NCBI GenBank assembly: GCA_963704705.1
Contig: OY969931.1
Span: 810,001 to 842,000, forward strand
DNA from: an uncultured bacterium
Lineage (GTDB): Bacteria > Patescibacteriota > Gracilibacteria > UBA1369 > PNNO01
Direction of reading: 5' to 3'
Length of the DNA: 32,000 nucleotides
Below, piece by piece: positions 1 to 14,478 of this stretch (position 1 is the first letter of the stretch; every line of letters begins with the position of its first letter). The notes below the pieces were generated by a model. The model ran no database searches. It saw only the letters and a list, made by a program, of their open reading frames with translations, and was not told the origin of the DNA. Both the position numbers and the translations under genes were made by a program.

Positions 1-164
1 TGAGTGCTGCTTTCCTCTGCAGTTGCAGAAATATGATCATTTTTCTTATCATTCTCTTTAAAGAAGTTTTTCAAAAATTCACAAAAAGGTGGGTAATAAG
101 TTCTTTCAGTGCCAATATCTTTAATTTTTTTAATTTCCTGTTGAAATTGTTGTAAAGAATTCAT
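1..164 (-). CDS. Partial CDS (N-terminal ~54 codons; gene continues past window start); possibly the N-terminus of a fused restriction/DNA-methyltransferase (type IIG-like) enzyme
   Basis: ATG at 164..162, open to position 1: MNSLQQFQQEIKKIKDIGTERTYYPPFCEFLKNFFKENDKKNDHISATAEESST. The segment G-T-E-R-T-Y-Y-P-P-F-x-x-F-L resembles, from memory, the E-H-S-Y-R-P-A-L-x-x-L-L N-terminal motif of class I SAM-dependent DNA methyltransferase/type IIG enzymes. Not verifiable here. Confidence 0.35.
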   Translation of the reverse strand, partial: MNSLQQFQQEIKKIKDIGTERTYYPPFCEFLKNFFKENDKKNDHISATAEESST

Positions 165-363
165 CAAATATAATAAATATAAAACATTTCATTTATATCA
201 CGAAAAACTTATATGCTCAATTTATTGAATGATTATTTAATATGTTCTTTTATTTTCTTTTTCAATTTCTGAACACTTCTATTATTTACTAATTTTTGAC
301 CTATACTAAGTAATTCATAATAAACAGCATCTTTCTCTGCAGAGCTTTTCTTTCGCGAATACT

Positions 364-891
364 TTATCCCAAAATTACAAACTTTGTTTCTTTGGATTTA
401 CGCGAAGTATCATAATGCGCTCCACCGAGTTTATTACAAACATATTTAATAACATCTTCAGGATAAATAATCTGACCATGAATAATAAAACTAGGTTGTT
501 TCAAATATTCACTAAGCTTTATAGGCCTATTTTTCTGTTTCTTACTTAGCTTATACATTTTTTTTGCTTCTTCATTTGAAGTTTCTTTATTTAATTCTTG
601 AAATTTGGAAATTTTAAGACCTTTATATTTTGCTCCACCAGCTTGATAAAAAGTAGTATTTCCAACGGAATCTAAACTATCTTTTCTATTAGAATCATGA
701 AGAAGAATCTTGATTTCAATATTCATCATTTTTGCCGCCTTCAATAATTTCCCATAAACAATTAAATTTCTAAGGACATTACTTGATCTTCGTAGAGAAT
801 CATCAGCAATAACTTGATTCCATTCTTTGGTGATATATTCAATATCCTCAGCAACAAGTTGCAACAAATCATTGTCCATATTTAAAACCAT
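364..891 (-). CDS. Hypothetical protein, 175 aa, no family recognised
   Basis: ORF track ATG..TAA. It sits directly downstream of the structured region/small ORF on the same strand and upstream of the partial gene at 1-164. Contains ...CNKLGGAHYDTSRK... but no motif I can assign. Confidence 0.6.
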   Translation of the reverse strand: MVLNMDNDLLQLVAEDIEYITKEWNQVIADDSLRRSSNVLRNLIVYGKLLKAAKMMNIEIKILLHDSNRKDSLDSVGNTTFYQAGGAKYKGLKISKFQELNKETSNEEAKKMYKLSKKQKNRPIKLSEYLKQPSFIIHGQIIYPEDVIKYVCNKLGGAHYDTSRKSKETKFVILG

Positions 892-915
892 ATATTTATA
901 CTTAATTTTACTAAA

Positions 916-1228
916 ACAGAGGCATAAGAGTTCACCTAACTAATATTAATTAGGTGTGGATTTCCGGTGTCGCGGTACACGAACCGTCTTTCCACTAGGC
1001 AAGCGTTTAGTATACGGTTTCACCGGTACTATTTTCTTACCTTTGGCTGTTTTAGCCATAGTAGAATGGGTTAAGAATAATAATGAGCGTAGGTTTAGTG
1101 TACGCCCAAGTTCAGCTACTACTTTTGTAATAACCAAACGGGGCGACTAAACTCTAGCCATTAATTCAACCCATTCTTTTGGGCTCAACCTTGCTTATGC
1201 CTCCATTTCAAAGAGCTAAAAATTAGCA
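916..1228 (-). ncRNA. Candidate structured RNA or long structured 5' leader (~290 nt), family unknown
   Basis: The complementary segments are fully nested (plus-strand coordinates). 916-928/1194-1206 gives 13 bp as minus-strand RNA, with core GAGGCATAAG/CTTATGCCTC. 1063-1072/1168-1177 is AGAATGGGTT/AACCCATTCT (10 bp). 1093-1099+1103-1107 pairs with 1141-1152 (7+5 bp, 3-nt bulge). Further pairs are 1044-1048/1054-1058, 964-969/1021-1026 (CCGGTG/CACCGG), 982-987/1014-1019, and the palindrome 933-944/945-956. The region is locally GC-richer than its flanks, and a canonical promoter lies immediately upstream. Confidence 0.4.
946..1059 (-). CDS. Possible small basic protein, 37 aa from the ATG (the track gives a 63-aa TTG-start version, 946..1137)
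   Basis: MAKTAKGKKIVPVKPYTKRLPSGKTVRVPRHRKSTPN. The ATG at 1059..1057 sits inside a 5-bp hairpin (1044-1048/1054-1058). No clear Shine-Dalgarno. It overlaps the structured-RNA candidate, so it may be either a real micro-protein or a chance ORF. Confidence 0.3.
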   Translation of the reverse strand: MAKTAKGKKIVPVKPYTKRLPSGKTVRVPRHRKSTPN

Positions 1229-1249
1229 CTTGGTATTATAGAGTGCTAA
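1223..1249. promoter_or_regulatory. 8-bp perfect inverted repeat bracketing the -10 box (candidate operator)
   Basis: TTAGCACT (1223-1230) and AGTGCTAA (1242-1249). The 11-nt spacer contains the TATAAT hexamer. Confidence 0.4.
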
Positions 1250-1262
1250 TTTAAAAAGTCAA
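1235..1262 (-). promoter_or_regulatory. Sigma70-type promoter TTGACT-N16-TATAAT reading toward 1228 and lower coordinates
   Basis: The minus strand has -35 TTGACT (1262..1257), a 16-nt spacer and -10 TATAAT (1240..1235). Confidence 0.5.
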
Positions 1263-1290
1263 TTATAATTTGTGTTAAAATAAATTATAA

Positions 1291-1380
1291 TTCGGCTATC
1301 CACCGGATCAACAAAAGCTCGCTACTGAAAACATATTGAAACAGGCAGAGCTACTTGCTGATGAATGGGTGGAGAAATAA
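1291..1380 (+). pseudogene. Start-less ORF fragment, possibly a relic of a type I specificity-subunit (HsdS)-like C-terminus
   Basis: Open frame without a Met: FGYPPDQQKLATENILKQAELLADEWVEK*. The P-P-x-x-Q-x-x-[LI]-A pattern loosely recalls the conserved P-P-L-x-E-Q-x-x-I motif of HsdS. Weak, memory-based. Confidence 0.15.
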
Positions 1381-1520
1381 ATAGAAGTTGCCAACGTTAA
1401 AAAAGCGATTCCAATAGAAATTATCGCAACAATCATAGATTTTTTACTAAAACTCTCGTGCTTCTTGTAATTCAATATATTCTAAATAATTAAAATACGC
1501 ACCCGGTGTTACACGGATAC

Positions 1521-1730
1521 CTATTTCACCATGGGTTTCATAAGGATTAACATCAAAAACATAAATGATAACGAAATTAAATCATCATAATCGTTTATTT
1601 TTTTATTTTTATCATAATTAAAACCTTTAGATATCAAATATTCATATAACTCATCAAATTTGATACCCTTATTTACATTTTCAACTGCATATTCTAAAAC
1701 TGTTATATAAAGGTCCTTGTCGTTTTTCAT
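1521..1730 (-). CDS. Hypothetical small protein, 69 aa
   Basis: ORF track. It starts 19 nt after the stop of the nuclease-like gene on the same strand. The N-terminal 45 aa look protein-like and the hydrophobic tail is uncertain. Confidence 0.4.
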   Translation of the reverse strand: MKNDKDLYITVLEYAVENVNKGIKFDELYEYLISKGFNYDKNKKINDYDDLISLSFMFLMLILMKPMVK

Positions 1731-1749
1731 TTTTCATTATTATTTATAT

Positions 1750-2673
1750 CTACTTCTCAAACTTTTCAAATACCTGCCTTATCAAAAACATGGCATAAGC
1801 AATATCATCATTTGAATGAACATCAAAAAGAGTAATGTGCTTATTATAATATTTATAGCTATTTTTCATATAACGTGCTCTTTTCTCGGGGTCTTTTAAA
1901 TCTTTGGGCTGAGTTCTATTTAAACCTACTTCAACTTTTGACTTATAAATTCTTAAGCTTACTACAACAGATTTCCCTATTTTATAACCTATATATTGCT
2001 TCTGTGGACTTTCTTCTATTGAAGGCCCTAAAGCAAACAACTCATTACTTAAAGCTTCATATAATTCACGTGATTCCTCCCACCCTTCCTTAAAATGATC
2101 TTCAACCGAGTATTTTTTAACTTCTTTGCTGACTTTTTCAATTGTTTTGTCTTTGGTTACTGTTTTTATTGATTCACTTGCCTCATGCGACTTAATTTGA
2201 TTGTAAAGAATTGTATTGTTGTCGTACTTTTTAACTTCCCACAGCTCAATTGGAAGATCTTTGAAATTTATTGAATTTCTTTGATAAGGCGTGAAACCGT
2301 TTGCAACAAAAAGAACTCTCGACTGAGACCAATCAACATCTTCTCTTTTTAAATTATCTTTCATCCGTTCGTTATATTCTAAAATAAAATCCGCCTTATT
2401 GTTTAACATCAGAGACAAATAAGCGAACCCCTGATCTACAACACTAAAACTGCGATCACGCTTATATTCAATTATTACAAAAGATTTAGTTTCAGTATCA
2501 AATGCAAGCGTATCAATGCGAAAATTCTGCAACTTAAATTCAGTTGCAATAAAATCCAGCCCAAAAACAGTATCAAGATTATCTTCAGTCAATTTTTGCA
2601 AATCTTTCTCCAACTTTATTTTTAATTCCTTTATTGAAATGAGTTTGTTTTTGTTGATTTGAAAAATTGGCAT
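1750..2673 (-). CDS. PD-(D/E)xK nuclease-fold protein (NucS/DUF91-like N-terminal part) with a DUF5655-like C-terminal domain
   Basis: N-terminal ...EKDLQKLTEDNLDTVFGLDFIATEFKLQNFRIDTLAFDTETKSFVIIEYKRD...VDQGFAYLSLM fits the D...(E/I)-E-x-K core typical of NucS/DUF91-type nucleases. C-terminal ...KQYIGYKIGKSVVVSLRIYKSKVEVGL... resembles DUF5655. Confidence 0.7.
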   Translation of the reverse strand: MPIFQINKNKLISIKELKIKLEKDLQKLTEDNLDTVFGLDFIATEFKLQNFRIDTLAFDTETKSFVIIEYKRDRSFSVVDQGFAYLSLMLNNKADFILEYNERMKDNLKREDVDWSQSRVLFVANGFTPYQRNSINFKDLPIELWEVKKYDNNTILYNQIKSHEASESIKTVTKDKTIEKVSKEVKKYSVEDHFKEGWEESRELYEALSNELFALGPSIEESPQKQYIGYKIGKSVVVSLRIYKSKVEVGLNRTQPKDLKDPEKRARYMKNSYKYYNKHITLFDVHSNDDIAYAMFLIRQVFEKFEK

Positions 2674-2756
2674 TTTAAAAATTTAATGATAAACATATAC
2701 TGATATAGCATAAAAAAGCCAAATTCTCAATAAAGATCAGGCTTGTCACCAAAATT

Positions 2757-2897
2757 TCACATACTCTCCCAAACCTCTATCGCATCATCATAATCAATGC
2801 CAAGTTCCTCAGACAATTCAATCACTTCTTCGGCATCTTCTTTGTCCAAATCATAATCATTCATAACGTTAATTGTTTCTTCTTCATCATCAATCAT
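2757..2897 (-). CDS. Possible 46-aa hyper-acidic protein (below the ORF-track size cutoff)
   Basis: Manual translation: MIDDEEETINVMNDYDLDKEDAEEVIELSEELGIDYDDAIEVWESM*. It has 20 D/E and 1 K. ATG at 2897..2895, TGA at 2759..2757, 84 nt upstream of the nuclease-like gene on the same strand. Confidence 0.4.
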   Translation of the reverse strand: MIDDEEETINVMNDYDLDKEDAEEVIELSEELGIDYDDAIEVWESM

Positions 2898-2954
2898 AAA
2901 AATTTGATATAATTACAGCATAATAATAATCAATATTAATCAAAATTTCCACTC

Positions 2955-3401
2955 ATGCACCTCCCCACCGCCATCAAACAGCTCTGCAAAATCACTGCGC
3001 AGCTAAAGAAGTCTCACAAGTCAAAGCACTTCACGCTTGATGGAAGGCTTGTTGGTGATCTTGGCGAGGTTTTGGCCGAGCAAAACTATAAGCTCACGCT
3101 GTTTGAGAAACTGGAAAAGGATTACGATGCAATTACATCCGATAACAAAAAGGTCCAGATAAAAGCCACTTTTAAGGATCATATCACCTACCCTGCCAAT
3201 TATACTCCTGAAATGCTTCTTGCTATTAAAATCAACCCGGACGGCACCTTTGAAGAGATATATAACGGTCCGGGCAAATACGTGGGAGAGCTGATCAAAG
3301 GGCGGAAAGCACCATATAACAGGCTGCACAGGCTTGCGGTGAAGAAACTGCGGGAGATAAATAAGCGGGTTAAGGGGAAAGAGAGGGTGGAGAGGAGATA
3401 A
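2955..3401 (+). CDS. Small PD-(D/E)xK-like protein (resembles DUF6998-type proteins), 148 aa
   Basis: ...FTLDGRLVGDLGEVLAEQNYKLTL...YDAITSDNKKVQIKATFKD... gives a D...Q-I-K core. The gene is visibly GC-richer than its neighbours. Confidence 0.6.
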   Translation: MHLPTAIKQLCKITAQLKKSHKSKHFTLDGRLVGDLGEVLAEQNYKLTLFEKLEKDYDAITSDNKKVQIKATFKDHITYPANYTPEMLLAIKINPDGTFEEIYNGPGKYVGELIKGRKAPYNRLHRLAVKKLREINKRVKGKERVERR

Positions 3402-3407
3402 ATCTTT

Positions 3408-3469
3408 CCGCTCCACTTCGCTCCAAAAGAGCCTCCGCTCGCTAACGCTCGCTGCGGCTCCGGAGGCTC
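3408..3469 (+). repeat. GC-rich intergenic repeat element, copy A (R1 + R2 motifs)
   Basis: R1 is CGCTCC-A-CTT-CGCTCC-AAAA (3409-3428). R2 is CTCGCTGCGGCTCCGG (3448-3463). A 9-bp stem GAGCCTCCG (3429-3437)/CGGAGGCTC (3461-3469) is also present. The element starts 7 nt after the stop of 2955..3401. Confidence 0.7.
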
Positions 3470-3505
3470 GAGAATGTTAATGATGACCGTTGACGTAATT
3501 CTAGC

Positions 3506-3511
3506 TATAAT
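3506..3511 (+). promoter_or_regulatory. Perfect TATAAT -10 box upstream of 3538..4380 (the -35 is only aTGACc)
   Basis: TATAAT at 3506-3511 and ATGACC at 3483-3488 with a 17-nt spacer. Confidence 0.3.
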
Positions 3512-3537
3512 GAAATTGAATCAATAACCACTATTAT

Positions 3538-4380
3538 ATGTCATTTTTTAAATCTTTGTTTGGCGGAAACCAAACTTCTCAACAAAACGATCAGGATCAG
3601 CTTGAGAACTATTTTAAAGAACTTCAGAAAGAGGTTACTAATGATTTAGAACAACTTTATGTTGATAGTTTAAAAGATATTAAAAAAGTTAAACCATTTT
3701 TTGATTTATTTAAAGTTACTGATTTTTATTTTGCTGGGTCTATAGAGGGTGATGTGGAAAAAATTGAAGATGGTTCAGTAAAATCAACTGAAAACACAAA
3801 ATTATCCTTTAATATGTTCCCTATTCAAGGCAAACCAATGTGTCCGTTTTTTACAAGTTACGAAAAAATGCAGGAATCACTTGGTAAAACCGGAACTCCA
3901 AATTATATAAAAATAAAATTTAAGGATTTCTACCATCCAAAAAGCAAAGATACTTTTATTATGAATCCGGGCTTTGTAATGGTTAAAATTTTCCCTCCTG
4001 AAACCATTATGGGAATTCTTGATGATAGTCTGATCAAATCAATGGCCCCAGAACTTGAAAAAGGCACTAAATTGCAAATCGGAATCCCCAAAGAGGTACC
4101 TGAAGAATTTTTTAAAGAACTTGTTCTTTATGCCTCAAAACAAAAAGCAATTAAAGAAATTTATTATGCACTTGTAATAGATTCTCAGCATGGTCAAAGA
4201 ATAGCTTTGGCAATTAAATTTGATGATGTTTCAGAAGGAACGAGTGTATATTTTGGTGATATTCAAGAGCTGGTTGAAAAAAATGATGTTGGCTATGGCG
4301 GATTTGTAGATATGGCTGAATTAAAAGATTCAAATCAATTGGCTCAGGGTATTAAAGAGTCCGGAGAAAGATTGTATTAA
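3538..4380 (+). CDS. SseB family protein (N- and C-terminal SseB-like regions), 280 aa
   Basis: ...GKPMCPFFTSYEKMQESL... matches the P-F-F-T-S-x-E motif of E. coli SseB (VIPFFTSLEALQ). The C-terminal ...AIKEIYYALVIDSQHGQRIALAIKFDD... parallels the SseB C-terminal region. Confidence 0.55.
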   Translation: MSFFKSLFGGNQTSQQNDQDQLENYFKELQKEVTNDLEQLYVDSLKDIKKVKPFFDLFKVTDFYFAGSIEGDVEKIEDGSVKSTENTKLSFNMFPIQGKPMCPFFTSYEKMQESLGKTGTPNYIKIKFKDFYHPKSKDTFIMNPGFVMVKIFPPETIMGILDDSLIKSMAPELEKGTKLQIGIPKEVPEEFFKELVLYASKQKAIKEIYYALVIDSQHGQRIALAIKFDDVSEGTSVYFGDIQELVEKNDVGYGGFVDMAELKDSNQLAQGIKESGERLY

Positions 4381-4455
4381 TTCTCACATCACCTTTGTTT
4401 AGAGAGTTTGTCGGTGTATCCTATGGAAAGCGATTTGATTATAGATCCTTAGCAG

Positions 4456-4490
4456 CCGTCCCGGGACGGAATTTTGTTTAAATTTTTTTA
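4456..4490 (+). terminator. Intrinsic terminator candidate: perfect 14-nt palindrome CCGTCCCGGGACGG followed by a T-rich tract
   Basis: CCGTCCCGGGACGG (4456-4469) followed by AATTTTGTTTAAATTTTTTT. It lies 76 nt downstream of the 3538..4380 stop. Confidence 0.55.
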
Positions 4491-4496
4491 GATTTT

Positions 4497-4518
4497 TTTA
4501 ATCAAAATTTAATAATTG
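4497..4518 (+). repeat. AT-rich conserved box TTTAATCAAAATTTAATAATTG (copy 1)
   Basis: 21/22 identical to 6651-6672. A shorter TTAATCAAAATTT is also present at about 2936-2949. In both full copies it follows a terminator hairpin and precedes a TTGAC -35-like box. Confidence 0.6.
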
Positions 4519-4534
4519 TCAGCTAATATTAATC

Positions 4535-4563
4535 TTGACCTCCAACTAATAACGCGATACAAT
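4535..4563 (+). promoter_or_regulatory. higBA promoter TTGACC-N17-TACAAT
   Basis: -35 at 4535-4540, a 17-nt spacer, -10 at 4558-4563. The ATG of higB is at 4593. Confidence 0.6.
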
Positions 4564-4584
4564 ATTAACGGAGGGCGTTAATAT
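4562..4584. promoter_or_regulatory. Perfect 9-bp inverted repeat (candidate HigA operator) overlapping the -10 end and the RBS
   Basis: ATATTAACG (4562-4570), GAGGG, then CGTTAATAT (4576-4584). The central GGAGGG doubles as a Shine-Dalgarno. Confidence 0.55.
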
Positions 4585-4592
4585 CCTGCCAG

Positions 4593-4874
4593 ATGATAAA
4601 AACCTTTAACTGCAAAGAGACTCAAAGGCTCTTCCACAGAATCAAATCACTCAAACTTCCCGGCGACATACAAAAAACAGCGCTGCGAAAGCTTAATATG
4701 ATACATGCTGCTGCAAACATAAATGACCTGCGCATTCCTCCATCGAACCATCTGGAATTGCTGAAAGGCGAACGCAAAGGAAAGCACAGCATAAGAATAA
4801 ATGATCAATGGCGGATAATATTCAATTGGCAGCAGGGCAACGCTTACGAAGTTGAAATAACCGATTACCACTAA
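4593..4874 (+). CDS. higB: Type II toxin HigB (RelE/ParE superfamily, 'plasmid maintenance system killer' type)
   Basis: MIKTFNCKETQRLF...LRIPPSNHLELLKGERKGKHSIRINDQWRIIFNWQQGNAYEVEITDYH is the canonical HigB-type layout and ending (..V.I.DYH). It is followed 5 nt later by higA. Confidence 0.9.
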   Translation: MIKTFNCKETQRLFHRIKSLKLPGDIQKTALRKLNMIHAAANINDLRIPPSNHLELLKGERKGKHSIRINDQWRIIFNWQQGNAYEVEITDYH

Positions 4875-4879
4875 TCAAT

Positions 4880-5191
4880 ATGACTAAAAGAGGACGGCTA
4901 AAACCCACACATCCCGGTGAAATTCTCATGGAGGAATTTCTAAAACCCATGAAGATTTCGCAATATCGTCTTGCAAAAGACATAAATGTGCCGCCAAGGC
5001 GCATAAATGAGATAGTCAAGGGCATCCGCTCAATAACTGCTGACACAGCTTTAAGATTTGCCAAGTTTTTCGGGAACTCACCTGAATTCTGGCTTAATCT
5101 TCAATCTCACTATGCATTAGAGGTCGAATCAGATAAATTAGAAAACATTCTTGAAAAAGAAGTAAAAGTGTTTTCTTTGAATACTGCATAA
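4880..5191 (+). CDS. higA: Antitoxin HigA (XRE-type HTH)
   Basis: HPGEILMEEFLKPMKISQYRLAKDINVPPRRINEIVKGIRSITADTALRFAKFFGNSPEFWLNLQSHYAL is the canonical HigA sequence pattern. Confidence 0.9.
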   Translation: MTKRGRLKPTHPGEILMEEFLKPMKISQYRLAKDINVPPRRINEIVKGIRSITADTALRFAKFFGNSPEFWLNLQSHYALEVESDKLENILEKEVKVFSLNTA

Positions 5192-5214
5192 AATAAACCC
5201 ATGAAAGACAAATT

Positions 5215-14401: not shown

Positions 14402-14478
14402 TGGTGGGTCAGGCGGGACTCGAACCCGCGACCAATTGCTTAAGAGGCAACTGCTCTAACCAACTGAGCTACTGACCC
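14402..14478 (-). tRNA. tRNA-Lys (anticodon CTT) with genomically encoded CCA
   Basis: Minus strand: GGGTCAGTAGCTCAGTTGGTTAGAGCAGTTGCCTCTTAAGCAATTGGTCGCGGGTTCGAGTCCCGCCTGACCCACCA. It has a 7-bp acceptor stem GGGTCAG/CTGACCC, anticodon stem GTTGC/GCAAT with loop CTCTTAA, and T-arm GCGGG-TTCGAGT-CCCGC. Confidence 0.95.

Follow-up and report, generated by a model that had tools for sequence, protein, structure and literature searches.

A structured messenger RNA with predicted pairing of its ends encodes a conserved, mobile basic micro-protein

The messenger RNAs (mRNAs) of type I toxins such as hok, aapA1 and tisB are known for a long-distance interaction between their 5′ and 3′ ends (T1TAdb, PMC8594479; PMC5416894). 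They are the nearest described parallel to the element analyzed here, which lies at positions 916 to 1262, on the minus strand, of a 32,000-nt stretch of DNA from an uncultured bacterium of the Gracilibacteria (contig OY969931.1, positions 810,001 to 842,000 of the forward strand, assembly GCA_963704705.1); we refer to this whole stretch as the window. A first-pass annotation, made from the sequence alone, had described the element as a promoter-driven multi-helix RNA that contains a 37-codon open reading frame (ORF). Like a type I toxin mRNA, the module formed by this element and its homologs has a short ORF within a highly structured mRNA of ∼200–400 nt, pairs its extreme 5′ end with a segment past the stop codon, and represents an autonomous locus often found on mobile DNA. 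The toxins of known type I systems are, with few exceptions, membrane peptides, whereas the peptide of the module is strongly hydrophilic and basic, and the narrow families of type I toxins differ from a peptide that is conserved across phyla. Moreover, a general antisense RNA gene was not seen for the module, and sequestration of its Shine-Dalgarno (SD) sequence is not clearly above that of ordinary genes. The small ORF and the 5′-3′ interaction are thus both present, but membership in the type I class fails on the hydrophobicity of the peptide. The autoregulatory leaders of ribosomal proteins also combine a small, very basic protein with a structured 5′ untranslated region (UTR). Unlike these genes, the module is accessory and patchy in its distribution, its UTR is not conserved along with the protein, and its structure closes around the entire ORF. 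We conclude that the element is a structured mRNA that belongs with the small-ORF mRNAs closed by 5′-3′ pairing, and that it is set apart by an uncharacterised micro-protein found across many phyla and by its recruitment by two families of insertion sequences (IS). Its features are the following:

1235..1262, minus strand: σ70-type promoter, TTGACT at 1262–1257, 16-nt spacer, TATAAT at 1240–1235, 11 of 12 consensus matches
1223..1249, minus strand: operator-like inverted repeat TTAGCACT-N11-AGTGCTAA, arms at 1249–1242 and 1230–1223 on either side of the –10 box
1194..1210, minus strand: 5′ strand of the closing stem (P1, the clamp), UGAAAUGGAGGCAUAAG, taken from the fold; the alignment lengthens the helix outward to ∼1222
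1063..1177, minus strand: long imperfect 5′ UTR hairpin, specific to the window's clade, with invariant cores GUUUAGUCG / GGGCG..ACUAAAC
946..1059, minus strand: gene for the 37-residue basic protein MAKTAKGKKIVPVKPYTKRLPSGKTVRVPRHRKSTPN, ATG at 1059–1057, stop codon TAA at 948–946
934..955, minus strand: stop-codon hairpin ACCUAAUUA / UAGUUAGGU, 9 bp, 955–947 / 942–934, taken from the fold
912..928, minus strand: 3′ strand of P1, CUUAUGCCUCUGUUUUA, taken from the fold, 17 nt past the stop codon; the alignment lengthens it to ∼901

The pattern of sequence change identifies the 37-codon ORF as a real gene, with purifying selection clearly acting on the protein. An exhaustive HMMER search with the peptide returned 21 cluster representatives, which are either 36–41 residues long or C-terminal parts of over-extended ORF calls. 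Homologous loci, gathered by pattern scans and then confirmed with tblastn, are present in 58 species genomes (Chloroflexota, Bacteroidota, Bacillota, Cyanobacteria, Actinomycetota, Patescibacteria, Desulfobacterota, WOR-3 and Dormiibacterota), in metagenomes (169 loci recovered, 80 retained) and on three viral contigs. The 104 unique ORFs, 33–42 amino acids in length, encode 99 distinct peptides from more than eight bacterial phyla with the consensus MAKTxxGKKIVPVKPYxRKxxGKxVxVxxHRRSTPN. Mean column entropy over these ORFs is 0.63, 0.52 and 1.63 bits at the first, second and third codon position, the third being ∼threefold more variable than the other two. The invariant residues include A2, K3, T4, G8, K9, K10, V14, S38 and T39, and the third codon positions at these residues are near saturation. 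Within the window's clade, pairs of ORFs show 13–17 synonymous versus 5–8 non-synonymous codon differences; these ranges leave out the near-identical pair formed by the window and the related locus L007, which differs at 6 synonymous and 2 non-synonymous codons. The first-pass annotation had considered a non-coding RNA and had set codon-periodic conservation against it. Periodicity and purifying selection indeed refute the non-coding reading, yet the RNA structure described below is real as well, and both signals coexist in the same element.

The protein matches a family that had already been clustered: all 19 peptides tested (the window and 18 relatives) hit phrog_21154 of the PHROGs database, a family of unknown function, with E values down to 3.3e-14. 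For the window peptide (E = 1.6e-09), residues 1–37 fall on profile positions 11–46 of 47. The PHROGs entry records neither a function nor an RNA structure nor a link to transposons. With the peptide profile, Pfam and NCBIfam gave no model and, with a PDB sequence search included, only insignificant similarity to KOW/Sm-like domains; Foldseek with the peptide model returned noise only, and a full-text literature search with peptide strings returned no papers. The exact window peptide is not contained in a collection of 15 billion proteins, and its gene is unannotated in the window. The peptide is hydrophilic, with a grand average of hydropathy (GRAVY) of –1.08, a net charge of +12 and an isoelectric point of about 12. 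The family as a whole is similar, with a GRAVY that averages –1.29, net charges from +6 to +16, an isoelectric point of about 11 and hydrophobic runs of at most 4 residues. AlphaFold2, run on a shallow alignment, predicts a two-stranded β-hairpin with strands at residues 8–19 and 25–33 and a mean confidence score (pLDDT, predicted local distance difference test) of 81.6.

The RNA around this ORF folds far better than expected from its composition. As minus-strand RNA, positions 916–1230 reach –127.3 kcal/mol, compared with –74.3 ± 5.2 kcal/mol for dinucleotide shuffles (z = –10.1), and none of 100 shuffles folds as well; the comparison with such controls had been proposed in the first-pass annotation. 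The plus strand reaches –102.2 kcal/mol (z = –7.1), which is 25 kcal/mol worse than the sense strand, as would fit a transcript of the minus strand that contains G-U pairs. Over 916–1206 the G+C content is 41.9%, compared with 27–30% in the flanks, in line with the earlier remark that the segment is GC-richer than its surroundings. All nested helices listed in that annotation are present in the minimum-free-energy fold. Its proposed closing stem, 916–928/1194–1206, is contained in the 17-bp stem P1 (1210–1194 / 928–912, 3 of the pairs G-U), which encloses a 10-bp helix (1177–1168 / 1072–1063), a bulged helix of 7 + 5 bp (1152–1141 / 1107–1093) and an apical stem (1139–1127 / 1122–1110). The ORF itself holds two compound three-part hairpins in the domains 1042–997 and 995–956, both of them conserved, and the hairpin predicted over the stop codon was found with 9 bp. 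The reading of the region as a promoter-driven RNA that is strongly and conservedly structured is supported.

Conservation of the complete element can be followed in three relatives, L007 (peptide 95% identical), L008 (84%) and L067 (identical to L068). On the resulting four distinct sequences, RNAalifold gives 104 pairs. In this window-clade alignment, standard pairs fill 93.7% of the pair cells, compared with 34–44% when the partners are slid by 1–3 columns, and 23 pairs change on both sides, compared with 0–4 after sliding; these values were reached by 0 of 500 shuffles. The compensatory changes are located in P1 (helix 1; 25 pairs, 7 of them changed on both sides), in the long 5′ UTR hairpin (helices 2–4; 42 pairs, 10 changed on both sides, 85–100% of cells paired) and in the ORF hairpins. 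The stop-codon hairpin (helix 10) is paired in 100% of cells and has a compensatory change in one pair.

Outside the window's clade the 5′ UTR cannot be aligned; what recurs is complementarity between a segment 70–115 nt upstream of the ATG and one just past the stop codon. We quantified it against cross-locus controls by a strict helix score that compares –260 to –15 on the upstream side with the stretch from the stop codon to +70 on the downstream side. This score replaced RNAduplex, which was too noisy since it allows long internal loops. By this measure, 48 of the 108 loci lie above the 95th percentile of the controls and 26 above the 99th. When 26 distant members were aligned, compensatory changes appeared in 9 of 9 P1 pairs; one column, for example, holds A-U 13 times, G-C 9 times and G-U twice. 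The sequence of P1 varies by clade while pairing is retained, and the clamp covaries across clades. RNAs reaching from one P1 strand to the other have a mean z score of –6.7 (n = 44), a value inflated in part because these loci had been chosen for having P1, and the ORFs alone have a mean of –1.5. Within P1, 42 G-U pairs were counted versus 22 A-C mismatches (p = 0.017, strict scoring), an excess that favors selection on the sense RNA and not on a DNA inverted repeat.

The position of the clamp is also conserved. In 22 loci with promoters matching at least 9 of 12 consensus positions, the –10 box ends a median of ∼7 nt before P1, which indicates that P1 is formed by the very 5′ end of the transcript. 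On the other side, among 49 non-redundant loci, the 3′ strand of P1 begins 9–14 nt past the stop codon in 26 and 6–20 nt past it in 37; in the window the distance is 17 nt. Many P1 helices comprise just 9–14 bp; those of the window's clade reach 17–25 bp. Marinitoga camini virus 1 keeps the clamp: GGGAGUGCAG, located 6 nt past TATAAT, pairs with CUGCACUCCC, 6 nt past the stop codon.

The promoter and the inverted repeat around its –10 box, both named in the first-pass annotation, are present, the former with 11 of 12 consensus matches and the latter as the 8-bp arms TTAGCACT / AGTGCTAA. From the promoter, transcription is expected to start near position 1228. The same promoter is found in L007 (11/12) and L067 (10/12); the repeat arms are unchanged in L007, and their TTAGCA half-sites are retained in L067. 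A small RNA hairpin that could form from the repeat shows no conservation in the alignment of the window's clade, and we read the repeat as a DNA site for a putative repressor.

That the element lies outside the known RNA classes, as suspected earlier, agrees with all searches performed. A scan of the whole window with Rfam 15 gave a tRNA gene at 14405–14478 on the minus strand (76.8 bits) as its sole match and none on the element, a permissive search (E ≤ 10) over 700–1500 gave nothing near the gathering score of any family (6S, SRP, RNase P, riboswitches and motifs such as HEARO, raiA or OLE included), and no match overlapped the module in 18 related loci. ARAGORN found neither a tRNA nor a transfer-messenger RNA in 600–1600, and no match to the RNA was obtained by blastn in collections of phages and plasmids. 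A transfer-messenger RNA is ruled out by the negative ARAGORN and Rfam results. Retron non-coding RNAs have an a1/a2 closing stem, msr hairpins 5′ of a long msd hairpin and an adjacent reverse transcriptase gene. This identity was rejected as well: among the neighboring ORFs scanned in 1–5200 there is no reverse-transcriptase domain, and the order is contradictory, the long hairpin preceding the short ones on the transcribed strand. As a side observation, a LOOT RNA (RF03000, 72 bits) is located at 2595–2720 on the plus strand of locus L039, a Saccharibacteria contig, ∼1.3 kb upstream of the module.

The module is an autonomous, horizontally mobile unit, carried as a transposon passenger and as a prophage moron. 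In five insertions, three of the IS1595 and two of the IS1 family, a transposase gene and the module lie together inside terminal inverted repeats flanked by 7–8-bp target-site duplications:

L027, 545–2713, 2169 bp: IS1595, target-site duplication TTTTATTT
L077, 994–3219, 2226 bp: IS1595, target-site duplication TTAGCATA
L122, 1042–3166, 2125 bp: IS1595, target-site duplication ATCTCATT
L099, 205–3170, 2966 bp: IS1, target-site duplication AAAGTTT
L144, 140–3031, 2892 bp: IS1, target-site duplication GACGAGTA

The IS1595 transposases carry DDE_Tnp_IS1595 and zinc-ribbon domains. In the IS1-family elements the terminal repeats begin with GGTAGTG, and the matches to DDE_Tnp_IS1 are weak. In all five elements the module is the last gene, 0–73 nt inside the right-hand repeat (8–17 nt in L099 and L122), and in four it is co-oriented with the transposase, the transposase ORF of L144 lying on the opposite strand. 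We know of no earlier description of two unrelated IS families that carry one passenger at an identical place, their right end. These five loci fit the passenger genes of transporter IS; the window copy does not, for no flanking inverted repeat was found and no transposase is present among the nearby ORFs scanned. In Marinitoga camini viruses 1 and 2, the module is part of an oppositely oriented two-gene insert (moron) beside RecT recombination genes, with P1 retained. Its mobility accounts for the patchy distribution across phyla. Directly before the module, a P63C-domain protein of ∼290–370 residues is encoded in L010, L027, L077 and L144. This gene and the module may form a two-gene cassette that occurs in transposons of both families, and the PADLOC hits PDC-M69A/B among the neighbors may correspond to the P63C protein.

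Taken together, we consider it rather likely that the element is the structured, end-clamped mRNA of a conserved mobile basic micro-protein and that the clamp stabilises or gates the message. The σ70-type promoter, overlapped by the operator-like palindrome, would drive a transcript of ∼300 nt coding for a conserved, very basic protein of 36–40 residues. The 5′ end of this transcript would pair past the stop codon, so that P1 closes around both the hairpins of the 5′ UTR and the structured ORF. A terminating bacterial ribosome reaches ∼9–12 nt past the A-site codon. The spacing of 9–14 nt between stop codon and P1 matches this reach, and P1 could therefore persist during translation; the ORF would be translatable while both mRNA ends stay paired and adjacent. 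The clamp might shield the 5′ and 3′ ends from RNases, keep the message in a controlled state, or both. Expression appears to be under tight control by interchangeable devices, namely the putative operator in the window's clade, divergent XRE-HTH and M78 regulators elsewhere, and RNA structure in most loci; the loci with a divergent regulator have short leaders. Such control suggests a peptide that is harmful or dose-sensitive or is needed only under stress, and the fact that its sequence hardly varies from phylum to phylum suggests that the target is universal, either a nucleic acid or the ribosome. The combination of both points to a dose-sensitive product acting on a universal target.

Several observations weigh against this interpretation. 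The structure model rests on an alignment of three to four sequences, and the role of the clamp we infer from sequence. The clamp is not universal: roughly every second locus lacks a significant P1, and in the Algoriphagus subgroup another conserved 5′ UTR is combined with a canonical terminator. A U-rich tract after P1 was not found (3.8 T per 12 nt versus 3.3 expected), which leaves the 3′ end of the RNA undefined; for the same reason, a role of P1 as a general intrinsic terminator was ruled out. Occlusion of the SD sequence is marginal, with an unpaired probability of 0.27 versus 0.36 in neighboring genes (p = 0.053). Pairing of the AUG does not exceed that in control genes. In the window's clade there is no recognisable SD sequence.

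Among the alternatives is a previously unrecognized class of selfish or defensive micro-genes. Here the near-invariant peptide would hit a universal machine such as the ribosome, a nucleic acid or a nuclease, its RNase-resistant mRNA would form a store released upon stress or infection by derepression of the operator or the XRE-M78 regulator or by opening of the clamp, and two IS families, prophages and defense islands would have recruited the gene for addiction or abortive infection. We regard this reading as tentative and on balance unlikely. A type I toxin-antitoxin system, in which the mRNA of a toxic peptide is kept inert by the 5′-3′ fold-back and an antisense RNA serves as the antitoxin, seems rather unlikely as well. 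The layout of the mRNA would fit the determinants of type I systems, which include a 5′-3′ long-distance interaction, 5′ stem-loops and SD/anti-SD pairing (PMC8594479), as would the small ORF and an autonomous module carried by IS elements and a prophage. The peptide, however, is hydrophilic and no member of the family has a hydrophobic run of more than 4 residues, and SD occlusion is marginal as described above. Antisense promoters with at least 9 of 12 matches lie beside P1 in 6 of 44 loci, compared with 1 and 3 in two controls, and a conserved one is absent from the window's clade (window, L007 and L067 scanned). Strong antisense σ70 promoters (10–11/12) that abut the 3′ strand of P1 and are aimed into the module were nevertheless seen in L052 and L074 (also in L057, L086 and L142), and promoters of this type could yield a 3′-overlapping antisense RNA in some lineages. 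Decidedly unlikely is an autoregulatory ribonucleoprotein, with the β-hairpin peptide binding the hairpins of its own mRNA or RNA and peptide forming a dual-function particle. The invariant cores of the 5′ UTR helices (GUUUAGUCG / GGGCG..ACUAAAC) amid covarying flanks, the strong basicity and predicted β-ribbon shape of the peptide, and the fact that module RNAs are more paired than the 5′ regions of neighboring mRNAs (unpaired fraction 0.33 versus 0.44, p = 2e-19) would all suit such a particle. Between clades, however, sequence and shape of the 5′ UTR are wholly different while the peptide has barely changed, which is unexpected for a specific peptide-RNA contact.

The remaining explanations concern the transcript or the DNA and not the peptide. 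Processing by RNase III, with P1 acting like the stems that flank ribosomal RNAs and freeing a small mRNA from longer transcripts, would be compatible with the 17–25 bp of P1 in the window's clade and with L008, L019 and L046, where the module follows a same-strand gene and no strong promoter of its own was seen (only L008 was examined for this). Where promoters are clear, however, transcription starts at P1, so that no 5′ excision is needed, and the many helices of only 9–14 bp also argue against this role, which we hold to be very unlikely. Still less probable is a cis-regulatory leader of a downstream defense-type operon, as the first-pass annotation had considered. In the window and L007 the next gene does follow on the same strand ∼20–45 nt after P1 without a terminator found by the scan between them, and same-strand downstream genes elsewhere include those for OLD/AriA/GajA-like ATPases, AbiH/SIR2-like and DUF3800 proteins. 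A leader dedicated to its downstream operon is contradicted by the 175-residue gene that follows in the window, for other members of its family have no such RNA upstream, and by next genes that vary. Of 80 loci, only 31 have a same-strand gene that follows within 200 nt, compared with 35 that have a convergent one, intrinsic terminators end L008 and the Algoriphagus loci, and in the transposons the terminal repeat comes directly after the module. Finally, the complementarity might reflect an inverted repeat of the DNA itself, for instance the two ends of a miniature transposable element, or the RNA might be non-coding with an incidental ORF; this is largely refuted already and retains hardly any probability. 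The plus strand folds well too (z = –7.1) and the module is associated with transposons, but the real terminal repeats of these transposons are separate and lie outside P1, P1 begins at the transcription start, and sense-strand G-U pairs outnumber A-C mismatches ∼2:1 in addition to the better sense fold. An incidental ORF is at odds with the strong codon periodicity of the 104 unique sequences.

The family is among the most tightly conserved micro-protein families that we could find across bacterial phyla, and it comes with an RNA architecture that is missing from Rfam. Our preferred reading, an end-clamped mRNA for a mobile micro-protein, also illustrates that a signal as “non-coding RNA-like” as z = –10 can come from an mRNA whose ends are clamped around its ORF. 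With ∼300 nt, the element is a compact test case for the control of bacterial mRNA fate by 5′-3′ pairing, for the binding partner of a universally conserved basic hairpin of 37 residues, and for the question why two unrelated transposon families share a passenger at the same end. Should the peptide prove to be a toxin or a factor in transposition or defense, a non-membrane, antisense-independent type would be added to the repertoire of small toxins. If it were a selfish or defensive micro-gene, the module would represent a toxin system that does without an antisense antitoxin, or else a new transposon accessory factor.

The first gene downstream of the element in the window is the following:

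364..891 (also 235–366), minus strand: 175-residue ORF, frameshift-truncated member of a rare family of ∼220 residues

The element does lie directly upstream of this gene, as noted earlier, and the gene turned out to be a truncated copy: its homologs have 216–252 residues, a protein of 219 residues falls into the same 90% cluster, and the 17 family hits have no Pfam domain. In other genomes the family adjoins housekeeping genes, and the module RNA is absent upstream of its members, so that a tie to this gene is rejected. It is probably co-transcribed with the module here, yet stands outside the conserved module. The gene after it resembles the N-terminus of a methyltransferase, as judged by eye only.

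The location of the element among defense-type genes was borne out by PDC-S18, restriction-like and HigB/HigA genes nearby, and such surroundings are typical of a defense or toxin-antitoxin island. By its RadA protein, the window belongs to the Patescibacteria, near the Peregrinibacteria. A PADLOC candidate, PDC-S18, is encoded at 1750–2673 on the minus strand (307 residues, end-to-end match, E = 2e-110); the protein carries a DUF5655 domain as well and is weakly similar to NucS/HsdR-N. On the plus strand, 2955–5191 encodes a DUF6998 protein weakly similar to a methyl-directed restriction enzyme, an SseB-like protein and a HigB/HigA pair. Two ORFs of 69 and 55 residues at 1308–1730 on the minus strand look, together with the intervening frame, like one gene frameshifted near A-runs, either a pseudogene or a homopolymer sequencing error. 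Comparable genes accompany other copies: an OLD/AriA/GajA-like ATPase gene is located downstream in L007, HsdM is encoded nearby in L008, and the neighbors include an AbiH/SIR2-like gene in L099 and a DUF3800 gene in L066.

In L012, L016 and L033 the divergent neighbor of the module encodes a regulator in which XRE-HTH and M78 peptidase domains are fused, and members of this protein cluster lie within 1.5 kb in 17 loci. Between the regulator and the peptide gene of L016 (∼3880–3960), the 13-nt direct repeat ATGTTAGATCTAG occurs twice, each copy containing the palindrome TAGATCTA; this repeat is probably the operator. In L019, L033, L034 (identical to L121) and L046, which represent four species of the Bacteroidota and relatives (Catalinimonas, Balneolaceae) and the Chloroflexota (Anaerolineales), the module lies next to genes for ribonucleotide reductase (class Ia nrdBA or class II). 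By a rough estimate this adjacency goes far beyond chance and hints at a link to DNA damage or the supply of deoxynucleoside triphosphates. In six Algoriphagus loci (L013, L015, L023, L026, L028 and L031), the peptide gene is in place while the next gene differs by species, with products of 385 + 760, 408 or 225 residues, none of which has a Pfam domain. The site beside the module thus resembles a variable hotspot.

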